Shown here: in pieces, positions 23,748 through 63,042 of the stretch | How the letters are laid out: each line of letters opens with the position of its first letter | Numbering within the stretch: the stretch's first letter is position 1 | Sequence record: NC_019500.1 | Length of the DNA: 64,000 nucleotides | Source: Escherichia phage Bp7 | Strand: one strand, 5' to 3' | Position numbers and translations under genes: made by a program | The notes under the pieces: generated by a model | The model's input: the letters and a program-made list of their open reading frames with translations, nothing else | The model's database searches: none | Told to the model about the DNA's origin: nothing

Positions 23748-24563
23748 ATGCAAGATTTCGGACATTGGGCGGTATTTGAAGAAACCGATATTAAAAACCA
23801 TATTGGATTTGTATACGTAATCACTTTTGAAGATGGCAAAAAATATGTAGGTGCTAAAAAGATTTGGAAACGAATTAAAGCTGCACCTTGCACATTTAAA
23901 CGCGGCCCTAAAAAAGGATTTGAAGAATCTGATTGGAAAACCTATACCTCATCATCTAATGAACTAAACGCAATGATAGAAAAGGGTATAAGTCCTAAAG
24001 AGTATCTTATTGTAGGATGGTATCCTACTTGGGGTAAAACTCTTATGGCAGAAATGGAAATGCAATTAGCCAATGATGTTTTACGAGACCCTATGTGGCT
24101 TAACAAGCAAATTGGCGGACATTTCAACCCTAACTGCTTTGACGATTTAACCGAAGATGATATTGCAAGATGGATGGAATTTGATAAAGGGAACGAACAT
24201 GTTTCCTGGCCTATGATGTACAAAATAGGTCAGAAAACCAAATATGTTAAACCTGACGAAGTTGGCGAGTATATTAAATCCGGGTGGCAATTTGGTCGTT
24301 CTAAAACAGAAAAACATTCTGTTACCTATAATTGCTCTAAATTTACTATATGGGACTATCAAGAAAATAAAGCAGTGGAAGTTCTAAATCAAAATGAGTT
24401 TGCTCGTAATAATGATTTAAGTAGTAACCATCTAACTAGACTACTTCAAGGAACTCTCGATCTTATTAAAGATCGCTGGGGACTTCCACCAGATATTGCT
24501 CGTCAGCGTTATAAATTTCAGACGTTTCTTCAGGAACAAAATTTTTATCTAATTCCGAGTTAG
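23748..24563 (+). CDS. GIY-YIG-like homing endonuclease candidate (271 aa)
   Basis: N-terminal GFVYVITFEDGKKYVGAKK resembles the GIY-x10-YIG motif. Confidence 0.45.
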   Translation: MQDFGHWAVFEETDIKNHIGFVYVITFEDGKKYVGAKKIWKRIKAAPCTFKRGPKKGFEESDWKTYTSSSNELNAMIEKGISPKEYLIVGWYPTWGKTLMAEMEMQLANDVLRDPMWLNKQIGGHFNPNCFDDLTEDDIARWMEFDKGNEHVSWPMMYKIGQKTKYVKPDEVGEYIKSGWQFGRSKTEKHSVTYNCSKFTIWDYQENKAVEVLNQNEFARNNDLSSNHLTRLLQGTLDLIKDRWGLPPDIARQRYKFQTFLQEQNFYLIPS

Positions 24564-30912: not shown

Positions 30913-32586
30913 AGACTTTTAAGTTAAAGAAAGTAACGTATAAAAATATCATGTCAGTAGGCCAACAGCCTATTACAATCCAACTTGATAAGGTCCAAAA
31001 GACCTTAGTCACAGGTAAAAATGGTGCAGGGAAATCTACGTTCCTTGAAGCTGTTACATTTGCTCTGTTCGGTAAGCCTTTTCGTGATGTTAAGAAAGGG
31101 CAATTAATTAACTCAAGTAACAAGAAAGACCTTTTGGTCGAACTGTGGATGGAATATGATGGCAAAGAATACTACATCAAACGTGGGCAAAAACCGAACG
31201 TTTTTGAAATCTCTTGTGGCGGTGAACGTCTTGATGAATCTGCCAGCAGTAAAGACTTCCAAGCAGAATTTGAACAGCTTATCGGAATGTCCTATGCAAG
31301 CTTCAAACAGATTGTCGTTCTTGGCACGGCAGGGTATACCCCCTTCATGGGTTTGTCAACCCCAGCGCGTCGAAAGCTGGTGGAAGACCTTTTAGAGGTT
31401 TCTGTATTAGCGGATATGGATAAGTTGAACAAATCTTTGATTCGTGAGACTAATAGCCAAATCCAGGTGATAGACGTTAAACAGGATTCTATTACCCAAC
31501 AAATTAAAATTTATAATGACAACGAAGAACGTCAACGTAAATTATCTGGCGAGAACGCGGCACGACTACAAACAATGTATGATGAGCTCGTTAAAGAAGC
31601 CAGGACTGCGAAGGGCAATATAGAAAAACTAACTGATGAATTACTCAATGTCATCGTCGATGATGACCCTAGCGACTCCATGAGTGACCTGAGTAATAAA
31701 GGATTTGCAATCAAGAATGATATGGCAACCTTTACGAAGGTCGTGAAATTATACGAAACTGGTGGCAGCTGTCCTACATGTATGCAAGGATTGGAAGAAC
31801 ACGGGAACATCCTTACTAAAATTAAGGATAAGAACTTTGAGCTTCAAAAATCTTTGGATAAGATTAATGAGCAATACCAAGAGCTCAAACTTATTAAAGA
31901 CCAAGTAACCGAACAACGTAATAAAGCGCTGGCTATTAAATCTCAGATAGCTACTCATAAGCAACAAGCCATTACTGCCGTAGAGAAAGCTAAAAAAGTT
32001 AAAGTATTAATCGACCAAGCAGCTGCTGAGTTCGTAAGTAATGCCGAAGAGATTGCCGCGCTTCAAGCAGAGCTTGATAAAATCGTCTCTACCAAATCCA
32101 CATTGGTAATGGAAAAATATCATCGTGGAATTCTGACAGAATGTTGAAGGATACTGGTATTAAAGGTTCCATTATTAAGAAATACATCCTATCTTTAATA
32201 AGCAGATAAATTCTTATTTGAAGATTATGGAAGCCGACTACGTCTTTACACTAGACGAAGAGTTCAATGAGACGATTAAATCACGTGGACGTGAAGACTT
32301 TAGTTATGCTTCATTTTCACAGGGTGAGAAAGCACGTATTGATATCGCACTACTTTTTACATGGCGTGATATTGCTGAAAAAGTCAGTGGAGCCACATTA
32401 GTACATTAGTGTTGGATGAAGTTTTGATGAGCAGTTGACGCTGAGGCTGTTAAGGCGATTGCAAGTATTCTTAATAATCTTGAAGACAGTAATGTTTTTA
32501 TAATCAGCCACAGGGACCATGACCATCAAGCATATGGCCAGCATTTACAAATGAAAAAGGTTGGTCGATTTACAATTATGGAATAA
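30909..32586 (+). pseudogene. 46: recombination ATPase gp46 (Rad50/SbcC-like), 3-prime end disrupted
   Basis: Walker A GKNGAGKST and zinc hook CPTC are intact to 32147; C-terminal SQGEKARIDIALLF, LVLDEV and ISHRD are spread over shifted frames with an 8-bp tandem duplication at 32395-32410. Confidence 0.75.
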
Positions 32587-32591
32587 GCCTC

Positions 32592-33308
32592 TTATTGAGG
32601 CTTCATTTTACAGTTATCGAAATGCCAACGATTCATATTACCGGAATTCCCTTGTTTACCACAATGAGGGCATTCTACCTTCTTTTCTGATTTTTTGCGC
32701 CCGTTAGGATTTTTCTTACAAAAAACTTTATGAGCCGCAATAACACAGGATTTTCCTGAAAGGCCGCAGAATTCACATTCCACAATTTTATAGACCATGT
32801 TTTCTAGGCCTTTCTTTATTTTTAATTTTTGCTCCTCAGATATAGAGCGGTCCACTTTATTAGGGCCTTTAGGGCAGTTATCGAAATGCCATCTGTTCAT
32901 ATTGCCTACCAATCCAGTTTTACCGCAGTGTGGACAGGTAACTCTAGGCTTTTTTAAAGCGGAAATTGACATTTTCTTTCTGGTTTCTTCCGAGAATTCT
33001 TTATCCTTTTGGACTTCTGAATTCTTACGACGAAGCCATCCAAATAATTTATTTTTAGACCTATCAGCTTTTGGTGAGCTAACTGTCATCATTCTTGCTG
33101 CATAGACTAACGATGCATTATCTGGATGGATTTTAACTAACAACTGATGAGCCAAGTAATGTTCTTCAGGTGTTAAGTCTACCAAGTTTAAAGCGTCGTC
33201 CGTTCCACCCATGCATTGTGGTATAATGTGATGACGTTCTTTATAGGTAGTTAAATTTCTATTAACTGCTCGTTGAATAAGCTTTTCGTATATTGATTTA
33301 TAATTCAT
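32592..33308 (-). CDS. HNH homing endonuclease (Mob-like)
   Basis: Minus strand; HHIIPQCMGG...N...H HNH motif plus repeated CPHCGK...NMNRWHFDNC zinc-binding modules; ATG 33308 after AAGGA. Confidence 0.8.
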   Translation of the reverse strand: MNYKSIYEKLIQRAVNRNLTTYKERHHIIPQCMGGTDDALNLVDLTPEEHYLAHQLLVKIHPDNASLVYAARMMTVSSPKADRSKNKLFGWLRRKNSEVQKDKEFSEETRKKMSISALKKPRVTCPHCGKTGLVGNMNRWHFDNCPKGPNKVDRSISEEQKLKIKKGLENMVYKIVECEFCGLSGKSCVIAAHKVFCKKNPNGRKKSEKKVECPHCGKQGNSGNMNRWHFDNCKMKPQ

Positions 33309-33351
33309 TATCAAATCCTTATTTGATACAGCGACCGATAAAGATATTTAT

Positions 33352-33546
33352 ATGGCTTCCAATTTTATAACAGGCCAGCATTTGTTGGCCGTTCCTGAAC
33401 TAAAGCGGTATGTTTTAGTTAATAACTTCTCTGGAGACGAACATCTTGTTACTGAAGATTATCTCCGAAATGCTTTTAAGTCAGAGTATGATAGAATCAT
33501 GTCGAACAGGAATCCTGCCTGGTTCGTTTATGAATACTTTGATTAA
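33352..33546 (+). CDS. hypothetical protein (64 aa)
   Basis: ORF upstream of rpbA. Confidence 0.4.
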   Translation: MASNFITGQHLLAVPELKRYVLVNNFSGDEHLVTEDYLRNAFKSEYDRIMSNRNPAWFVYEYFD

Positions 33547-33606
33547 ATTAAGTGCTTTAAAATATTGATTTATAATACATCTACCAACCAAATGAGAGAA
33601 AATATT

Positions 33607-34020
33607 ATGTTTGCTAACGCTATTACTGTTAAAGATATCCAAGTTAAAACCATTCGTACTGATTCCAACCCACATAATCAAAACCGTATCCGTAAATCAT
33701 GGGTACTGAATATTGATACCGACTCTGCACGTCGTCTGCAGTCTCTTCCACAAGAAACTAAGTTCATGCTCTACGGTATCATTGATAACGACGTATCCGA
33801 TAAGTGGGTAGAAATTATGCGTCGCCACTATAATGATTCACTGGCCGCAGGTGCTAAACTGGTTATCGACCGTGATGGTTCTGAACGTCTCGAAGATGAT
33901 TATTGTGTAGATTTTGACGAACAACTGCTTGAAGCTGGTGCTATTGTTGCTTCCCAGATTCCAGAGTATATTGAATCTCTGCCTGAATCCATTCGTAAAC
34001 AAATGATCGTTATTGCTTAA
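33607..34020 (+). CDS. rpbA: RNA polymerase-binding protein RpbA candidate
   Basis: 137 aa acidic protein immediately upstream of gene 45, as in T4. Confidence 0.55.
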   Translation: MFANAITVKDIQVKTIRTDSNPHNQNRIRKSWVLNIDTDSARRLQSLPQETKFMLYGIIDNDVSDKWVEIMRRHYNDSLAAGAKLVIDRDGSERLEDDYCVDFDEQLLEAGAIVASQIPEYIESLPESIRKQMIVIA

Positions 34021-34048
34021 TTAATTTTTGACTTGATAAGGAAACATT

Positions 34049-34747
34049 ATGAAATTCTCTAAAGAAACTCTGAACATTCTGAAAAACTTCTCCGGTATTA
34101 ACCCAGGTATCATGCTTAAACCTGGTAACACTATTCTAACTCGTTCAGTAACGGGTGCAAGTTATGGTGAAGCTACTGTAAATGACACCTTTGATATCGA
34201 AGCCGCAATCTACGACCTGAACGGCTTCTTAAGTATTCTGTCATTGGTATCTGATAGTGCTGAAGTTTCGGTAAGTGAAGACCAAACCACCTTAATTATT
34301 AAAGACCAACGTTCAACTATTAAATGGCCTATTGCCGACCCAAGTACAATTGCATTCCCAAGCAAAGCTATTCCATTCCCGGTGGCTGAAGTTATTTTCG
34401 ACCTTAAAGCCGAAGATTACCAACAGTTGATGCGTGTGTCCTCTGGATTGAGTATTGATACATTTGCTATCACTGTAGACAACGGTAAAATTGTAATCAA
34501 TGGCTACAAACAAGTTGATGATAAGGACCTGGCACGTCCATTGTATTCCTTAGTGGTTGCAGACCATGATGGTCCTGAATTCAAATTCATTATCAACAAA
34601 ACTAATATGAAAATGATGCCTGCCGATTACCATGTATTGTTATGGGCTCGTGGTGAAGGTCAGGACGCTCGTTTCGCAGCCAAGTTTGAAGGTTCACAAG
34701 CTTCTTATGTATTGGCTATGGAAGCAGGCTCAAGCCACTCGTTCTAA
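34049..34747 (+). CDS. 45: sliding clamp gp45
   Basis: 232 aa; N-terminus MKFSKETLNILKNF resembles T4 gp45; upstream of 44/62. Confidence 0.9.
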   Translation: MKFSKETLNILKNFSGINPGIMLKPGNTILTRSVTGASYGEATVNDTFDIEAAIYDLNGFLSILSLVSDSAEVSVSEDQTTLIIKDQRSTIKWPIADPSTIAFPSKAIPFPVAEVIFDLKAEDYQQLMRVSSGLSIDTFAITVDNGKIVINGYKQVDDKDLARPLYSLVVADHDGPEFKFIINKTNMKMMPADYHVLLWARGEGQDARFAAKFEGSQASYVLAMEAGSSHSF

Positions 34748-35325
34748 TGTATATATGTTATCATAATACGATAACCAACACTAAAACCAAGTGTGTCTAT
34801 CATTATTTTGGTAGACACCGTGTTACTGCTGAAGAATACTACGGTACAGGTAAGTTTGTTAAGAAATGCAAACGAGAAAATGCTATTACTCCAGGTCTTT
34901 GGGAGTTTTGTGTTGAAGTTATCCATACAGTGGATACGTTTAAAGAAGCCAAGATTATTGAAGAAGAGCTTGTTAAAGAAGGCATATCAAAATATGGTAT
35001 CCTTTGTGTTAATAAGAATCCTGGTGGTGATGGCGGTGTGGATTACCACACCGAAGAATCTAAACGTAAAATGTCAGAAACTAGAACAGGAAAATCAAGA
35101 ATATTTTCCGAAAGTCATAAAGAAAATTTAAGTAAACGAGCCAGAAAATACTCTGATGTTTGGTCCGAACCTGTATATTCAAATCTTAAAACCATTTGGC
35201 TGGAAACAGGTATGTTAAAACGCGGACGGTTTAGTACGCTTTTACAAAAATATGGGTATAATTATTCTGCGAATGAATTGAATAAAATTGTTAAACATTT
35301 TAATGAGGAAAATAATAATGAGTAA
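34747..35325 (+). CDS. Seg-like GIY-YIG-family endonuclease candidate, possibly degenerate (192 aa)
   Basis: Inserted between 45 and 44, overlapping both; NUMOD-like repeats (SKRKMSETRTGK, SESHKENLSKRARK); N-terminal GIY-YIG core atypical. Confidence 0.5.
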   Translation: MYICYHNTITNTKTKCVYHYFGRHRVTAEEYYGTGKFVKKCKRENAITPGLWEFCVEVIHTVDTFKEAKIIEEELVKEGISKYGILCVNKNPGGDGGVDYHTEESKRKMSETRTGKSRIFSESHKENLSKRARKYSDVWSEPVYSNLKTIWLETGMLKRGRFSTLLQKYGYNYSANELNKIVKHFNEENNNE

Positions 35326-36295
35326 AGTAGTAAATGGTTTAACTATTAATGAAAACGACTTCATGTGGGAACAGAAATATCGTCCAGGTACTTTATCTGA
35401 GTGTATTCTGCCAGCGCATGATAAAGAAACCCTCCAAGCCATTGTTAATAAGGGTCTAATCCCTAACATTATCCTAGTCTCTGCTTCACCAGGCACAGGT
35501 AAAACTACCGTAGCTAAAGCATTGTGTGCTGATACAAATTCAGATATGCTTTTTGTTAACGGTTCCGACTGCCGTATTGATTTCGTTCGTAATGAACTTA
35601 CTCGTTTTGCATCTTCCAAATCTATCGAAGGTAAACGTAAGGTAATTGTTATCGACGAATTCGACCGCGCCGGTGTTGCTGAAGCTCAACGTCACCTTCG
35701 TTCGTTCTTAGAAGCCTATTCCTCAAACTGTTCTGTAATTATTACAGCAAACAATATTGATGGTATTATCGGTCCACTTCAATCCCGTTGTCGTGTTATT
35801 AAATTTGGTGAAGCCACTCCGGCCGACCAAACAACCATGATGAAAGAAATGATTCATCGTGCTGTAGCAATCTGTAAAAACGAAAATATCGAAGTCGAAG
35901 ACCTTAAAGTTATTGCTGCCTTAGTTAAACAAAACTTTCCTGACTTCCGTAAAACAGTTAACCAACTGGACCGTTACTCATCCAGTGGTAAAATCGATAC
36001 AGGCATTTTGAGTATTGTAATGAATACCAATTCGCCTATCGATGAAGTAGTGGCTGCACTTAAAGATAAAAACTTTAAAGAACTCCGTGCATTAGCTCCA
36101 CGTCATGTCAACGATTATTCCAACTTTATTATGTCGCTGGCTAACGAACTCTATGGTAAATTGCCTGGGCCAAGCATTGTTAGAATGTACGAAATTGTCG
36201 GTGAAAATAACCAATACCACGGTATTGCGGCTAACCCAGAAATTCACATGACTTATCTGTTCATCCAACTTGCTCTGGAGCTCCAATGGCTATAA
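35318..36295 (+). CDS. 44: clamp-loader large subunit gp44
   Basis: AAA+ Walker A SPGTGKTT, Walker B VIVIDEFD; start ATG 35318 after GAGGAAAATAATA. Confidence 0.9.
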   Translation: MSKVVNGLTINENDFMWEQKYRPGTLSECILPAHDKETLQAIVNKGLIPNIILVSASPGTGKTTVAKALCADTNSDMLFVNGSDCRIDFVRNELTRFASSKSIEGKRKVIVIDEFDRAGVAEAQRHLRSFLEAYSSNCSVIITANNIDGIIGPLQSRCRVIKFGEATPADQTTMMKEMIHRAVAICKNENIEVEDLKVIAALVKQNFPDFRKTVNQLDRYSSSGKIDTGILSIVMNTNSPIDEVVAALKDKNFKELRALAPRHVNDYSNFIMSLANELYGKLPGPSIVRMYEIVGENNQYHGIAANPEIHMTYLFIQLALELQWL

Positions 36296-36858
36296 GTCTT
36301 TTTGATGATGACGTTGAACTGAACGAACATGAAGTTGCTTGGAAATCACGTAACGACGCTGCAATTCAAGCCTTGGCCGATTCATTTAAAGAAAAGGCTG
36401 AAAACGAACTGTTCGCCATTATGAACGATATCACATATGGTAAAAACCAACGTAACTTGGCTCAATCGGAAAACTACAATCAATTTTGGCTCGATAATAG
36501 TTTGAGCCAACATGTGGATTGCATTATGCAAGCTGCAATGGTTAACTGTCTGAAACTTGATGACCAAAGTCATTTCAACTATCTTTTACATGCTGTTCCT
36601 AAGGGTAAGAGATTTGGTAAATGGGCTAAGGCCCATGATGATGAAGTTAGTGTAGTTTTTATTACTCGTTTATTGATGAAATACCATTCAATTAATAATG
36701 ATGACGCTTATCGTTATCTCGAGACTTATAAAATTAAAGGCCATCTTCCGGCGGTGCTTAAGAAGATGAAAGGGTTGGTTACTGACGAGTTCCTGAAATC
36801 CGTAACCAAAAATGTTAAAGAACAAAAAGACTTGAAAAAGAAAGCATTGGAATGGTAA
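36286..36858 (+). CDS. 62: clamp-loader small subunit gp62
   Basis: 190 aa ORF overlapping the gp44 end, position as in T4. Confidence 0.8.
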   Translation: MAISLFDDDVELNEHEVAWKSRNDAAIQALADSFKEKAENELFAIMNDITYGKNQRNLAQSENYNQFWLDNSLSQHVDCIMQAAMVNCLKLDDQSHFNYLLHAVPKGKRFGKWAKAHDDEVSVVFITRLLMKYHSINNDDAYRYLETYKIKGHLPAVLKKMKGLVTDEFLKSVTKNVKEQKDLKKKALEW

Positions 36859-36863
36859 ATTAA

Positions 36864-37226
36864 ATGATTGAAATTACTCTGAAACAACCTGAAGACTTCT
36901 TGAAAGTGAAAGAGACCCTAACTCGTATGGGTATCGCTAATAATAAAGAAAAGAAACTATATCAATCCTGCCACATTCTGCAAAAGCAAGGGCTGTATTA
37001 TATAGTCCACTTTAAAGAGATGTTACGTATGGATGGTCGCCAAGTTGATATCGATGGTGAAGACTATCAACGTCGAGATTCAATTGCCCAGCTTCTTAAG
37101 GAGTGGGGACTGATTGATATTGTAGATGAATCTGAACTGTTCGAAATCACCAATAACTTCCGTGTCATTTCCTTTAAGCAGAAAAATGACTGGGAACTAC
37201 TGTCTAAGTACACCATTGGTAATTAA
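36864..37226 (+). CDS. regA: translational repressor RegA
   Basis: 120 aa, between 62 and 43 as in T4. Confidence 0.8.
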   Translation: MIEITLKQPEDFLKVKETLTRMGIANNKEKKLYQSCHILQKQGLYYIVHFKEMLRMDGRQVDIDGEDYQRRDSIAQLLKEWGLIDIVDESELFEITNNFRVISFKQKNDWELLSKYTIGN

Positions 37227-37227
37227 T

Positions 37228-37443
37228 ATGATTCTTGAAATTGAAACGTGTGAACGTCTTAAAGAGGTATACGGACTTTCTCCAACTCAAACTGTTTTTG
37301 ACCTTTCCGAAGAGCTCCAAATAGAATTTCAAAAGGACCTCCATAAGTTGCTACATCCAGGTCAGAAAGTCTTCCAGGCTATGATTAAAACTAAAGACGA
37401 AGATGGTAATTCAACCATTAAACGTCAAACAATAGAAATTTAA
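37228..37443 (+). CDS. hypothetical protein (71 aa)
   Basis: ATG overlaps regA stop. Confidence 0.45.
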   Translation: MILEIETCERLKEVYGLSPTQTVFDLSEELQIEFQKDLHKLLHPGQKVFQAMIKTKDEDGNSTIKRQTIEI

Positions 37444-37448
37444 GCAAA

Positions 37449-37466
37449 GGGACTTCGGTCCCTTTT
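37449..37466 (+). terminator. rho-independent terminator
   Basis: GGGAC-TTCG-GTCCC followed by TTTT. Confidence 0.7.
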
Positions 37467-37524
37467 GGAGTATAATGATTCATCAACAAACAAAAGACAA
37501 TCACTCGTCTATAAAGGAAATGAA

Positions 37525-50564: not shown

Positions 50565-51593
50565 ATGTCATATGTCGATAAAGAATTTGCTGTACGTGCC
50601 TTGAATTACCAACCTAAATTCAGACAAGTAACTGGTAGTGATTTTAAATTAAACTGTCGTTGTCGTGTATGCGGTGACTCTCAAAAAGATGAGAACAAAG
50701 CTCGTTTTTGGGCCTATCCGGCTAATGACGGCTCTGTAATGCTGCACTGTTTTAACTGTGACTATTCAGCAGGAATTAAGAAGTATCTATACGAATACGA
50801 GCCTGATTTATATCGCGAATATATTCTTGAGAAACATAAAGAGCAATCGTTCGGGAGACAAGCTGCACCTAAGGTGGAGATATCTGAAAAAATTAAAGCT
50901 AAGATGCCTGTCATCGAAAAGCTTAATTTCTGTGAACGATTAGATAGGATGCCGAAGGACCATCCTATTATCAAATATGTGACGTTACGTTGCATTCCTG
51001 AAAACAAATGGAACCGGCTGTGGTTTACTAAAGAATGGCCTGCATTAGTTAACTCTGTGAATCCAGGGACCTATTCTAAAGAAATGCCTGAGCCTCGTTT
51101 GGTTATTCCAATTTTCAATAAGAATAAACAAATTGAAAGTTTTCAGGGTCGAGCCTTACGTAAAGATGCTCCACAAAAATATATTACAATAAAAGCTCAC
51201 GACCAAGCTACAAAAATATATGGAATGGATACAGTTGACGAACGTCAGTTGGTGTGGGTAATGGAAGGCCCTATTGACTCTTTGTTTGTTCCGAATGCAA
51301 TAGCAATTACTGGCGGGTCGTTGGACTTGGCTATGGTTCCGTGCAAAGAAACTAGGGTTTGGGCCCTTGATAGCGAAAGCCGCCACCCAGATACTATTTC
51401 AAGAATGAAAAAGCTTATCGAGGCTGGTGAAAAAGTAGTGTTTTGGGATAAGGTCCCTTGGCCTTCTAAAGATATTAACGATATGATTAGAAAAGACGGG
51501 GCGTCGCCGGAAGCAATACTAGAATATATGAAAAGTAATTACAGTCAAGGATTAATGGCTAAATTGAGATTACAACGGTATGCTAAAATATGA
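50565..51593 (+). CDS. 61: DNA primase gp61
   Basis: 342 aa; zinc ribbon CRCRVCGDSQKD...CFNCDY; strong similarity to T4 gp61. Confidence 0.95.
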   Translation: MSYVDKEFAVRALNYQPKFRQVTGSDFKLNCRCRVCGDSQKDENKARFWAYPANDGSVMLHCFNCDYSAGIKKYLYEYEPDLYREYILEKHKEQSFGRQAAPKVEISEKIKAKMPVIEKLNFCERLDRMPKDHPIIKYVTLRCIPENKWNRLWFTKEWPALVNSVNPGTYSKEMPEPRLVIPIFNKNKQIESFQGRALRKDAPQKYITIKAHDQATKIYGMDTVDERQLVWVMEGPIDSLFVPNAIAITGGSLDLAMVPCKETRVWALDSESRHPDTISRMKKLIEAGEKVVFWDKVPWPSKDINDMIRKDGASPEAILEYMKSNYSQGLMAKLRLQRYAKI

Positions 51594-52345
51594 ATTATAA
51601 TAAAATTTATGACGATTTGGTTAATAGGGCCCTTGAAAGGGGTCTTATTAAAGAAAATTTAAAATACTATACAGAATCTCATCATATTATACCTGAATGT
51701 ATAGGTGGGCCTGATATAGATTCAAACAAAGTATTATTTACGGCAAGAGAGCATTTTATAGCTCACATATTATTGTATAAGATTTATAAGTTGCCTAAAT
51801 TAATATATGCTGTGCATATGATGTGCAATTCTAGTGAAAAGCACCAAAGAAATTCTAAGATGTATGACTGGCTTAGAAAGGACCATAAAGCAGCCTTAAG
51901 TAAGAAAATGACCGATGCTTGGAAAGCCCCTGAATTTAGGACCAAAATGGTGGCGGCCTTATACCAAAGGCACAAAGATAAGCCCGTCACAGAGGAGACT
52001 AGGGAAAAACAGTCTAATTCTCTAAAGAGGTATTATAAAGAAAATCCTATCTCTGAAGAAGCAAAAAAGAAAAATTCAGAAGCCCAAAAACAAAGGTTTA
52101 AAGATAGGCCTCAAACAGAAGAAACAAAAAGATTAAGGAAGGACTCATGCAGAAAAACCCAAGGCACCCCTATATGGTTATGTAATTCGAATGGGGTAGG
52201 AATAGAAAAGTTTTCTTCTGCGGCAGAAGCTAAAGAAATCTTAGGATTGTCCGGGCACACCCAAAATATATACACCGCTTGTAAGCGAAACAAAGAAACC
52301 GGGAGATTGTATAAATCCTCCGGTTTAATTTGGAAATATCAATAA
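51590..52345 (+). CDS. HNH homing endonuclease (Mob-like)
   Basis: 251 aa; ESHHIIPECIGGPD...N...H HNH motif with NUMOD-like repeats; N-terminus paralogous to the HNH gene at 32592-33308. Confidence 0.8.
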   Translation: MNYNKIYDDLVNRALERGLIKENLKYYTESHHIIPECIGGPDIDSNKVLFTAREHFIAHILLYKIYKLPKLIYAVHMMCNSSEKHQRNSKMYDWLRKDHKAALSKKMTDAWKAPEFRTKMVAALYQRHKDKPVTEETREKQSNSLKRYYKENPISEEAKKKNSEAQKQRFKDRPQTEETKRLRKDSCRKTQGTPIWLCNSNGVGIEKFSSAAEAKEILGLSGHTQNIYTACKRNKETGRLYKSSGLIWKYQ

Positions 52346-62361: not shown

Positions 62362-63042
62362 ATGAAATATATAACATACTTAACAATATATGATGGAACA
62401 AAGCTACCTCCATTTTATATAGGCTCCACTTATTTGGATAAACACCTAGCTGGATATCATGGTTCGGTTACATCCAAAAAGTACGAAGACCTATATAATA
62501 AAGAGCTTGAGGAACACCCTGAATTATTTGATAGCATGATTTTGGGTGAATTTGAAACCAGAGAAGAAGCTACATTTTGTGAGCTTTATTACCAAAAACT
62601 TTATAACGTTGTTAAAAGTAATTTATTTTTCAATATGGCATATGCTACCGTTGACGGATGTTTTGGTATGGATGTTTGTAAAGAAAATAATCCATTTTGG
62701 AACCATAAACATTCTGAAAGTACATTAAAAGCCCAATCTGATGCTAAGATTGGAGAGCTTAATCCTATGTACGGGACTAAACGCCCTGAGCATTCTAAAG
62801 CAATGTCAAAAGAAAATAATCCTTTTTATGATAAGAAACACACCGAAGAAGGATTGGTTAAGTGTGGAATTAAAAATCGTAAAAGTCCGGTATGGGAATA
62901 TGAATCTGCTTTAGAAAAATTATGGTTAGAATTAGATAAACCTAAATTGGCTATGTTTATGCGAGAAAGTATTAAACGCGGTTTTCCTGAAGGTTCATAC
63001 AAAAATATTTTACGACAATTCGAGAGAAGACATAATGATTGA
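62362..63042 (+). CDS. GIY-YIG homing endonuclease (Seg-like)
   Basis: 226 aa; N-terminal YITYLTIYDGTKLPPFYIGST (GIY...YIG) with NUMOD-like repeats (NNPFWNHKHSE, NNPFYDKKHTE). Confidence 0.65.
   Translation: MKYITYLTIYDGTKLPPFYIGSTYLDKHLAGYHGSVTSKKYEDLYNKELEEHPELFDSMILGEFETREEATFCELYYQKLYNVVKSNLFFNMAYATVDGCFGMDVCKENNPFWNHKHSESTLKAQSDAKIGELNPMYGTKRPEHSKAMSKENNPFYDKKHTEEGLVKCGIKNRKSPVWEYESALEKLWLELDKPKLAMFMRESIKRGFPEGSYKNILRQFERRHND

Follow-up and report, generated by a model that had tools for sequence, protein, structure and literature searches.

Free-standing homing endonuclease genes (HEGs) of phage T4 are found between conserved genes, and those of the Seg family provide the closest described relatives of the gene considered here. 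T4 SegF and SegG are associated with intronless homing and with the marker exclusion of T2 genes 56 and 32, and the gene adjacent to the endonuclease gene is co-converted in the process (PMC2988022). In the T4 nrdA/mobE pair, the AUG of the endonuclease overlaps the upstream stop codon (UAAUGA), an arrangement that suggests translational coupling, by which endonuclease synthesis is limited (PMC2988022). RegA attaches to initiation regions, either at the AUG or immediately 5' of it, and gene 44 is one of its classic operators (PMC3014915).

The window, the whole stretch of 64,000 nucleotides that was analysed, is a segment of a Dhakavirus genome (JS98-like, T4-related). The approximately 2.3 kb surrounding the endonuclease gene is 99% identical to Escherichia phage PSD2002; no record is this close across the whole window, the best for the first 25 kb having 94.6% identity. 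The features of the locus are as follows.

34049 to 34747, plus strand: gene 45, the sliding clamp, upstream flank, with its TAA at 34745-34747 (open reading frame; annotation of PSD2002, MX01 and QL01)
34745 to 34749, plus strand: TAATG overlap between the gene 45 stop and the start of the endonuclease ORF, one base being common to both (sequence)
34747 to 35325, plus strand: predicted Seg-like free-standing homing endonuclease gene, 192 amino acids, ATG start (ORF list, phrog_314, profile, model)
34747 to 35037, plus strand: predicted N-terminal GIY-YIG nuclease domain, residues 1 to about 97 (conserved residues Y5 to G94, listed below)
35047 to 35148, plus strand: linker with two NUMOD3-like helices, residues 101-134 (NUMOD3 at 17 bits, weak 1i3j match, model)
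35161 to 35316, plus strand: predicted C-terminal three-helix (helix-turn-helix or homeodomain-like) DNA-binding domain, residues 139-190 (model)
34748 to 35359, plus strand: inserted or replaced segment, 612 nt (alignment, QL01 spacer, association analysis)
35230 to 35320, plus strand: 3' zone of the ORF with unusual nucleotide-level conservation (sliding identity, reduced dS, alignments)
35302 to 35320, plus strand: gene 44 translation initiation region AATGAGGAAAATAATAATG, with Shine-Dalgarno sequence GAGG at 35305-35308 and ATG at 35318-35320 (native sequence of SP18)
35318 to 35359, plus strand: foreign gene 44 5' end MSKVVNGLTINEND, where HEG-less Dhakaviruses have MLTVNNNE (HEG-linked fixed differences end at 35359)
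35318 to 36295, plus strand: gene 44, the clamp-loader large subunit, 325 amino acids, downstream flank (open reading frame; PSD2002 annotation)

The 192-residue ORF overlaps both of its neighbours, as an earlier reading made from the sequence alone had stated. Within the TAATG, one base belongs both to its start codon and to the stop of gene 45, and its own TAA at 35323-35325 falls within the start of gene 44, whose ATG is at 35318, in the overlap ATGAGTAA (sequence; PSD2002 annotation). There is no Shine-Dalgarno sequence upstream of the endonuclease ATG, and since the TAATG overlap comes without one, translation of the ORF is probably coupled to that of gene 45. In GenBank, the gene is labelled a hypothetical protein in PSD2002, MX01 and VR20 and is part of gene 44 in vB_EcoM_005; the MX01 copy is already named homing endonuclease in UniProt. 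Three minus-strand ORFs within the region (34744-34926, 34839-34985 and 35242-35619) are probably by-products of AT-rich sequence.

Pfam is nearly silent on this ORF, and the assignment to a family therefore relied on a seeded profile and a structure model. The Pfam GIY-YIG models (PF01541, GIY-YIG; PF19835, SegE_GIY-YIG) return nothing even at E<=10, and NUMOD3 (PF07460) matches residues 101-116 with 17.0 bits (E 0.0059), which is under its 20.4-bit cut-off. NCBIfam gives no match and the PDB sequences, searched with the ORF, no GIY-YIG match, while PHROGs places the ORF in phrog_314, 'homing endonuclease' (E 9e-17). A word-indexed homolog search finds just four proteins. A profile seeded with the ORF and three close database homologs, searched exhaustively, detects 280 proteins, 79 of which were aligned to give a deeper 79-sequence profile. 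Pfam domains among these 79 relatives are NUMOD3 in 46 (at E<=0.001), SegE_GIY-YIG in 21, GIY-YIG in 18 and I-TevI_DNA-bd in three, so that the ORF belongs to the GIY-YIG Pfam families only transitively, through the 18 and 21 relatives that match those models.

In profile comparisons with hhalign, both T4 SegA (probability 99.9%, E 5e-35) and T4 SegF (99.5%, E 3e-22) align with the 79-sequence profile over their full length, including the C-terminal domain, and so does the window ORF at 62362-63042 over its full length (98%, E 6e-14). The SegE-like ORF at 23748-24563 is not matched significantly. With a shallow 6-sequence profile, hhalign recovers the C-terminal similarity alone. Against PDB sequences, the deep profile recovers both halves of I-TevI weakly, with E values of 0.04 and 0.15, the DNA-binding domain being 1i3j.

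The consensus of the family is Y-x(10-14)-Y-x-G-K-H-x(4-6)-D-x-Y-x-G-S-G ... E ... C-x-N-x(3)-G-G. The ORF retains all of the invariant or near-invariant positions (Y5, Y20, G22, H24, Y31, G33, G35, E72, N89, G93 and G94), and its T34 also stands at a conserved position, which is Ser in most relatives. The columns of Y5, Y20 (with G22), E72 and N89 are conserved in 78 of the 79 relatives, and no full-length copy of the gene has lost any of the family-invariant residues. When the profile is aligned with 1ln0, Y5, Y20, E72 and N89 fall on Y6, Y17, E75 and N90 of I-TevI. The position of I-TevI R27 lands in an insertion of the alignment; R23, R25 and K39 are candidate equivalents.

The structure was modelled with AlphaFold2 from the 79-sequence alignment; the resulting model, which replaces an earlier one from 4 sequences (pLDDT 60), has a pLDDT of 90.8 and depends on a remote-homolog alignment picked by the same profile. 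It shows the GIY-YIG alpha/beta fold, with a three-stranded sheet flanked by helices, and its best PDB match is the I-TevI catalytic GIY-YIG domain. Foldseek searches against viral models (BFVD) return Seg-like or GIY-YIG endonucleases. The two helices of the linker span residues 103-113 and 122-134 in the model. The window and MX01 alleles have 78% amino-acid identity and a dS of 0.85; their dN/dS is 0.18, with a lower value of 0.11 for the nuclease domain. The window and Gaprivervirus VR20 copies are 60% identical, with a dN/dS of 0.22. Since dN/dS is about 0.1-0.2, the coding sequence is under purifying selection that acts on the protein.

The ORF thus probably belongs to the T4 Seg family of free-standing GIY-YIG homing endonucleases; SegA and SegF are its nearest relatives there, and nuclease activity is predicted. 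The sequence-only reading had proposed such a Seg-like gene between genes 45 and 44, and the end-to-end profile match to SegA and SegF, the match to the I-TevI fold and the sporadic occurrence described below all bear it out. Its two remarks on the domains need qualification. The GIY-YIG core, which it called atypical, is so in relation to the Pfam models, none of which reports it at E<=10, but as a SegA-type core it is normal, with all family-invariant residues present. The NUMOD-like repeats survive in part: residues 101-116 match NUMOD3 weakly and a second helix, at 120-134, is visible by eye and in the model, but the match stays below the Pfam cut-off. The search with GIY-YIG and NUMOD profiles that it had suggested comes close to no match when Pfam is used alone, the sub-threshold NUMOD3 being the only signal.

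The gene is found in a minority of relatives that are otherwise 92-98% identical, always at the 45|44 junction. A survey of Dhakavirus covered 49 records with at least 90% identity over the 45-44 region. The insert is present in seven of these approximately 49 records, representing five distinct phages (PSD2002, vB_EcoM_005, MX01, SHP1 and LQ5) among about 45 genomes, and the remaining records have a 61-bp 45-44 spacer instead. In Gaprivervirus, two of 34 records carry it, again at the 45|44 junction; both are VR20, which makes one of about 33 when VR20 is counted once. Three metagenome contigs with homologs have the identical neighbours, 45 and 44. The gene is therefore far from being conserved in all relatives, most Dhakavirus and Gaprivervirus records being without it, and the comparison with phages that lack the insert, which the sequence-only reading had called for, places the site at the 45|44 junction and the Dhakavirus segment at 34748-35359.

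In Dhakavirus, the 612-nt segment stands in for about 88 nt of the HEG-less phages, namely the 61-bp spacer, which contains a hairpin and a TATAAT, and the first 9 codons of gene 44. Gene 45 is identical in the aligned HEG+ and HEG-less relatives until its stop codon, which is exactly the left boundary of the insert. The right boundary lies inside gene 44, where identity is back at 35360, and the N-terminus of the gene 44 product reads MSKVVNGLTINENDF in HEG+ phages and MLTVNNNEF in HEG-less Dhakaviruses. An association analysis of five HEG+ against five HEG-less genomes covered 748 nt on the left and 938 nt on the right, and all the HEG-linked fixed differences that it found lie within 34748-35359. 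With 95% identity as the minimum, the gene 44 5' tract is restricted to HEG+ Dhakaviruses, and its nearest HEG-less versions, at 78-81%, are those of Gapriverviruses; the long gene 44 start and initiation region ATGAGGAAAATAATAATG are native in the HEG-less Gaprivervirus SP18. Judged from these alignments, the block brings a Gaprivervirus-like ribosome-binding region and the first 14 codons of gene 44 into Dhakavirus. The VR20 copy is simply inserted, with the spacer hairpin on one side of it and the gene 44 initiation region on the other. The flanks of LQ5 are about 98% identical to the window, yet LQ5 carries an MX01-type allele (79% nucleotide identity), so that the history of the endonuclease gene is decoupled from that of its flanks. 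As read from these genomes, the sporadic occurrence, the boundaries and the replaced flank are the footprints to be expected of homing in which the adjacent gene is co-converted (PMC2988022, PMC2330249).

The empty 45-44 spacers contain a stable hairpin, with a TATAAT-like hexamer next to it. In Dhakavirus, the stem is AGGGAGG...CCTCCCT (record L004, 2253-2271); the empty Gaprivervirus spacer has the tetraloop hairpin GGGGCTTCGGCCCC and T4 (at about 31900) the imperfect variant GGGCTTCGGCC, each followed by its TATAAT-like hexamer. VR20 keeps the spacer hairpin upstream of the endonuclease gene, and all Dhakavirus HEG+ alleles have lost it.

In the proposed mechanism, the enzyme would cut HEG-less genomes during co-infection, at a site within or close to either the 45-44 spacer or the gene 44 5' end, and double-strand-break repair would use the HEG+ genome as the template from which the gene and its flank are copied, which is intronless homing with co-conversion. 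The protein would be made through termination and reinitiation coupled to gene 45 (TAATG, no Shine-Dalgarno sequence), while gene 44 would be translated from the ribosome-binding/RegA site in the last codons of the endonuclease. Because this site is embedded in the 3' codons of the endonuclease, the insert would leave expression of the clamp loader undisturbed. Since an occupied allele must escape its own enzyme, and since there is no other HEG-linked difference within -748/+938 nt, the best candidate for the target is the segment of about 90 bp that is replaced in Dhakavirus. This segment is nearly invariant among empty Dhakaviruses, and TGGAGTAYAAWGTARAAAC...TGAGGAAAWTAAT is common to the empty Gaprivervirus site; the cut is predicted to fall within TAAAGCATAGGGAGG...TGGAGTATAATGTAAAAACAAACCTGAGGAAATTAATATGCTTACAGTAAACAATAATGAA. 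Alternatively, the target may lie outside the analysed -748/+938 nt, as SegF and SegG cut away from their insertion sites.

The 3' end of the ORF carries signals of gene 44. Identity to MX01 and to VR20, which is of another genus, reaches 92-95% over the last 60 nt or so (about 35257-35316) and 83-88% over the 30 nt that precede them, whereas identity to VR20 is 48-77% in the interior of the ORF; dS is roughly halved over the conserved 3' stretch. The gene 44 initiation region, whose counterpart in T4 is GAATGAGGAAATTATG, sits in the last codons of the endonuclease (NEENNN) and is predicted to be unstructured. This region is probably a RegA operator, and the last 20-25 nt would be conserved through dual coding. 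For the conservation upstream of this, a promoter is unsupported as the cause, a scan for sigma-70 promoters and terminators over 33300-35600 being no richer than that of shuffled sequence. RNA folding of the two junctions gives nothing beyond chance (z -0.8 and 0.0), and Rfam gives no match in 33000-37500. A perfect TATAAT lies at 35257-35262, 55 nt 5' of the gene 44 ATG, and the alleles of MX01 and VR20 have it too. It lacks a convincing -35 element or MotA box, and a middle promoter composed of this hexamer and the MotA-box-like CGCTTTTA was rejected, by eye, as too poor a fit to the T4 consensus.

A different arrangement is found in vB_EcoM_005 (L003, NC_055783, 2248-3684), where a deletion of 112 nt, equal to window 35217-35328, removes the C-terminal DNA-binding domain of the endonuclease together with the ribosome-binding site and ATG of gene 44. 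Residues 1-157 of the Seg protein are fused in frame to gp44, the whole being annotated as a 478-residue 'clamp loader', and the ATG at the junction (Seg Met156) could reinitiate gp44 as MLLNGLTINENDF. The fusion may be a natural intermediate of decay, or else an error of assembly.

The overlap with gene 44 allows a more far-reaching reading, which is tentative and on balance rather unlikely: the endonuclease gene would be welded into the clamp/clamp-loader operon as an anchoring strategy, its last codons serving as the ribosome-binding/RegA region of gene 44, and the portable gene 44 5' end would have enabled the crossing from a Gaprivervirus-like phage to Dhakavirus. If this were true, simple deletion would be lethal, and decay would have to take in-frame routes, such as the Seg::gp44 fusion of vB_EcoM_005.

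The same overlap would also preserve a gene that has ceased to home, since removal of a decaying or inactive remnant would delete the ribosome-binding region of gene 44. The rare distribution, the constraint that gene 44 expression signals place on the 3' end of the ORF, the loss of the C-terminal DNA-binding domain with the 112-nt deletion of vB_EcoM_005 and an R27 equivalent that alignment does not identify are all compatible with such a remnant. However, the nuclease domain has a dN/dS of 0.11 across alleles with a dS of about 0.9, all full-length copies retain the family-invariant residues, and two diverged alleles sit on near-identical backbones, which points to recent movement; a remnant is accordingly improbable. 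The conserved nuclease residues also count against a protein of the replication operon that has been domesticated for DNA binding or regulation, whether as a modulator of genes 45, 44 or 62 or as a helper in phage-phage competition. Such a role would suit the embedding in the 45-44-62 unit with a translational overlap on either side, and recent work gives host-beneficial roles to some Seg enzymes, SegB for example (PMC13096335). The C-terminal helix-turn-helix domain is indeed the most conserved part of the protein, but the 3' conservation is at the level of nucleotides and not only of amino acids, which argues for overlapping gene 44 signals rather than for a special function of the protein. 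With approximately 85-90% of the close relatives replicating without the gene, domestication is very improbable.

The constant site of the gene could mean that it is an accessory gene inherited vertically, lost many times and not mobile. This would require many independent and precise deletions, each restoring the identical 61-bp spacer and the short start of gene 44. Moreover, the type of HEG allele does not track the similarity of the flanks, as LQ5 and MX01 illustrate, and the linked 5' tract of gene 44 has its nearest counterpart in another genus, so that vertical inheritance is scarcely credible. A mobile homing endonuclease gene of the Seg family remains the preferred reading.

Four further homing endonuclease genes had been recognized in the window from the sequence alone, and each has a match to SegE_GIY-YIG, to NUMOD3 and the hhalign profile, or to phrog_655.

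23748 to 24563: SegE-like gene (SegE_GIY-YIG, E 2.5e-34)
32592 to 33314, minus strand: HNH homing endonuclease gene (phrog_655, 'homing endonuclease', E 2e-68)
51590 to 52345: second HNH-type gene (phrog_655, 'homing endonuclease', E 2e-52)
62362 to 63042: paralogous Seg-like gene, downstream of motB (NUMOD3, E 1.7e-8; hhalign 98%)

The genes identified near the endonuclease genes of the window are 47, 46, rpbA, 45, 44, 62, regA, 43, uvsX, 41, 56, dda and motB. The gene at 51590-52345 has no Pfam match and overlaps the end of the ORF at 50565-51593; this ORF, just upstream, has no Pfam match and is presumably gene 61, as assumed from the T4 gene order. The HNH gene at 32592-33314, between gene 46 and the rpbA region, contains repeated CxxC zinc-ribbon motifs and is also present in MX01, KIT01, IME281 and phage 04086. 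At its position, PSD2002 and QL01 annotate just the small gene 45.2, and the window has a 64-residue ORF at 33352-33546. Since an HNH gene like that of MX01 and KIT01 is combined with a seg allele like that of PSD2002, the window is a mosaic. Gene 46 (30909 to about 32591) has five single-base deletions relative to MX01 at 32139-32425, at least three of them in short runs of the same base, which split it into ORFs of 412 and 63 residues. These frameshifts are likely to be sequencing errors, although gene 46 may be a pseudogene.

The Seg-type free-standing endonuclease gene between 45 and 44 is real and, for its kind, unremarkable; it has a predicted nuclease and a candidate target, and it leaves the current understanding of homing unchanged. 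No description of an endonuclease gene at this junction was found in the literature searched, the coverage of which is incomplete and makes this weak evidence of novelty. The mosaicism of T4-like phages is shaped by free-standing endonuclease genes, and 45|44 is a further mapped insertion site to be catalogued for them. The locus also shows how such a gene can lie between two essential genes that are under translational regulation and leave them undisturbed. With near-identical HEG+ and HEG-less phages, two diverged alleles, a sharp block of 612 nt and a candidate target of about 90 bp, the locus is a natural test system.

Each of the known systems shares some features with the ORF and differs from it in others. 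T4 SegA, its best profile match, has the same three-part architecture, with a C-terminal W..iW..gkP...f....G.p..y..mv..F domain and the shared core motifs Y..Y.G.H....(D/E).Y.G(S/T)G ... E ... N..GG. Identity to SegA is only about 18-20%, however, and SegA is located next to uvsX, whereas the ORF is at the 45|44 junction, is about 30 residues shorter, has a shorter NUMOD3 linker and has a start that is probably coupled to the upstream stop. The window ORF at 62362-63042 is a paralogous Seg-like gene with a shared architecture, but it lies downstream of motB and has a clear Pfam NUMOD3. I-TevI is encoded by the td intron and has a zinc finger in its linker and a canonical R27, while the ORF is free-standing, has no Cys cluster and contains a Seg-type insertion (H24...Y31-x-G-T-G) between the YIG motif and helix 1. 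MobE, encoded between nrdA and nrdB, has a comparable overlap of AUG and stop codon (UAAUGA, against UAAUG in the ORF), but it is a nicking enzyme of the HNH family. Like SegF and SegG, the ORF is free-standing between conserved genes, is present or absent among close relatives and would be accompanied by co-conversion of an adjacent gene. The cleavage sites of SegF and SegG have been mapped experimentally, hundreds of base pairs from the insertion point, whereas the target of the ORF is a candidate deduced from the replaced segment. The ORF differs from both enzymes in that its presumed co-converted tract takes in the start codon and the ribosome-binding region of the neighbouring gene.
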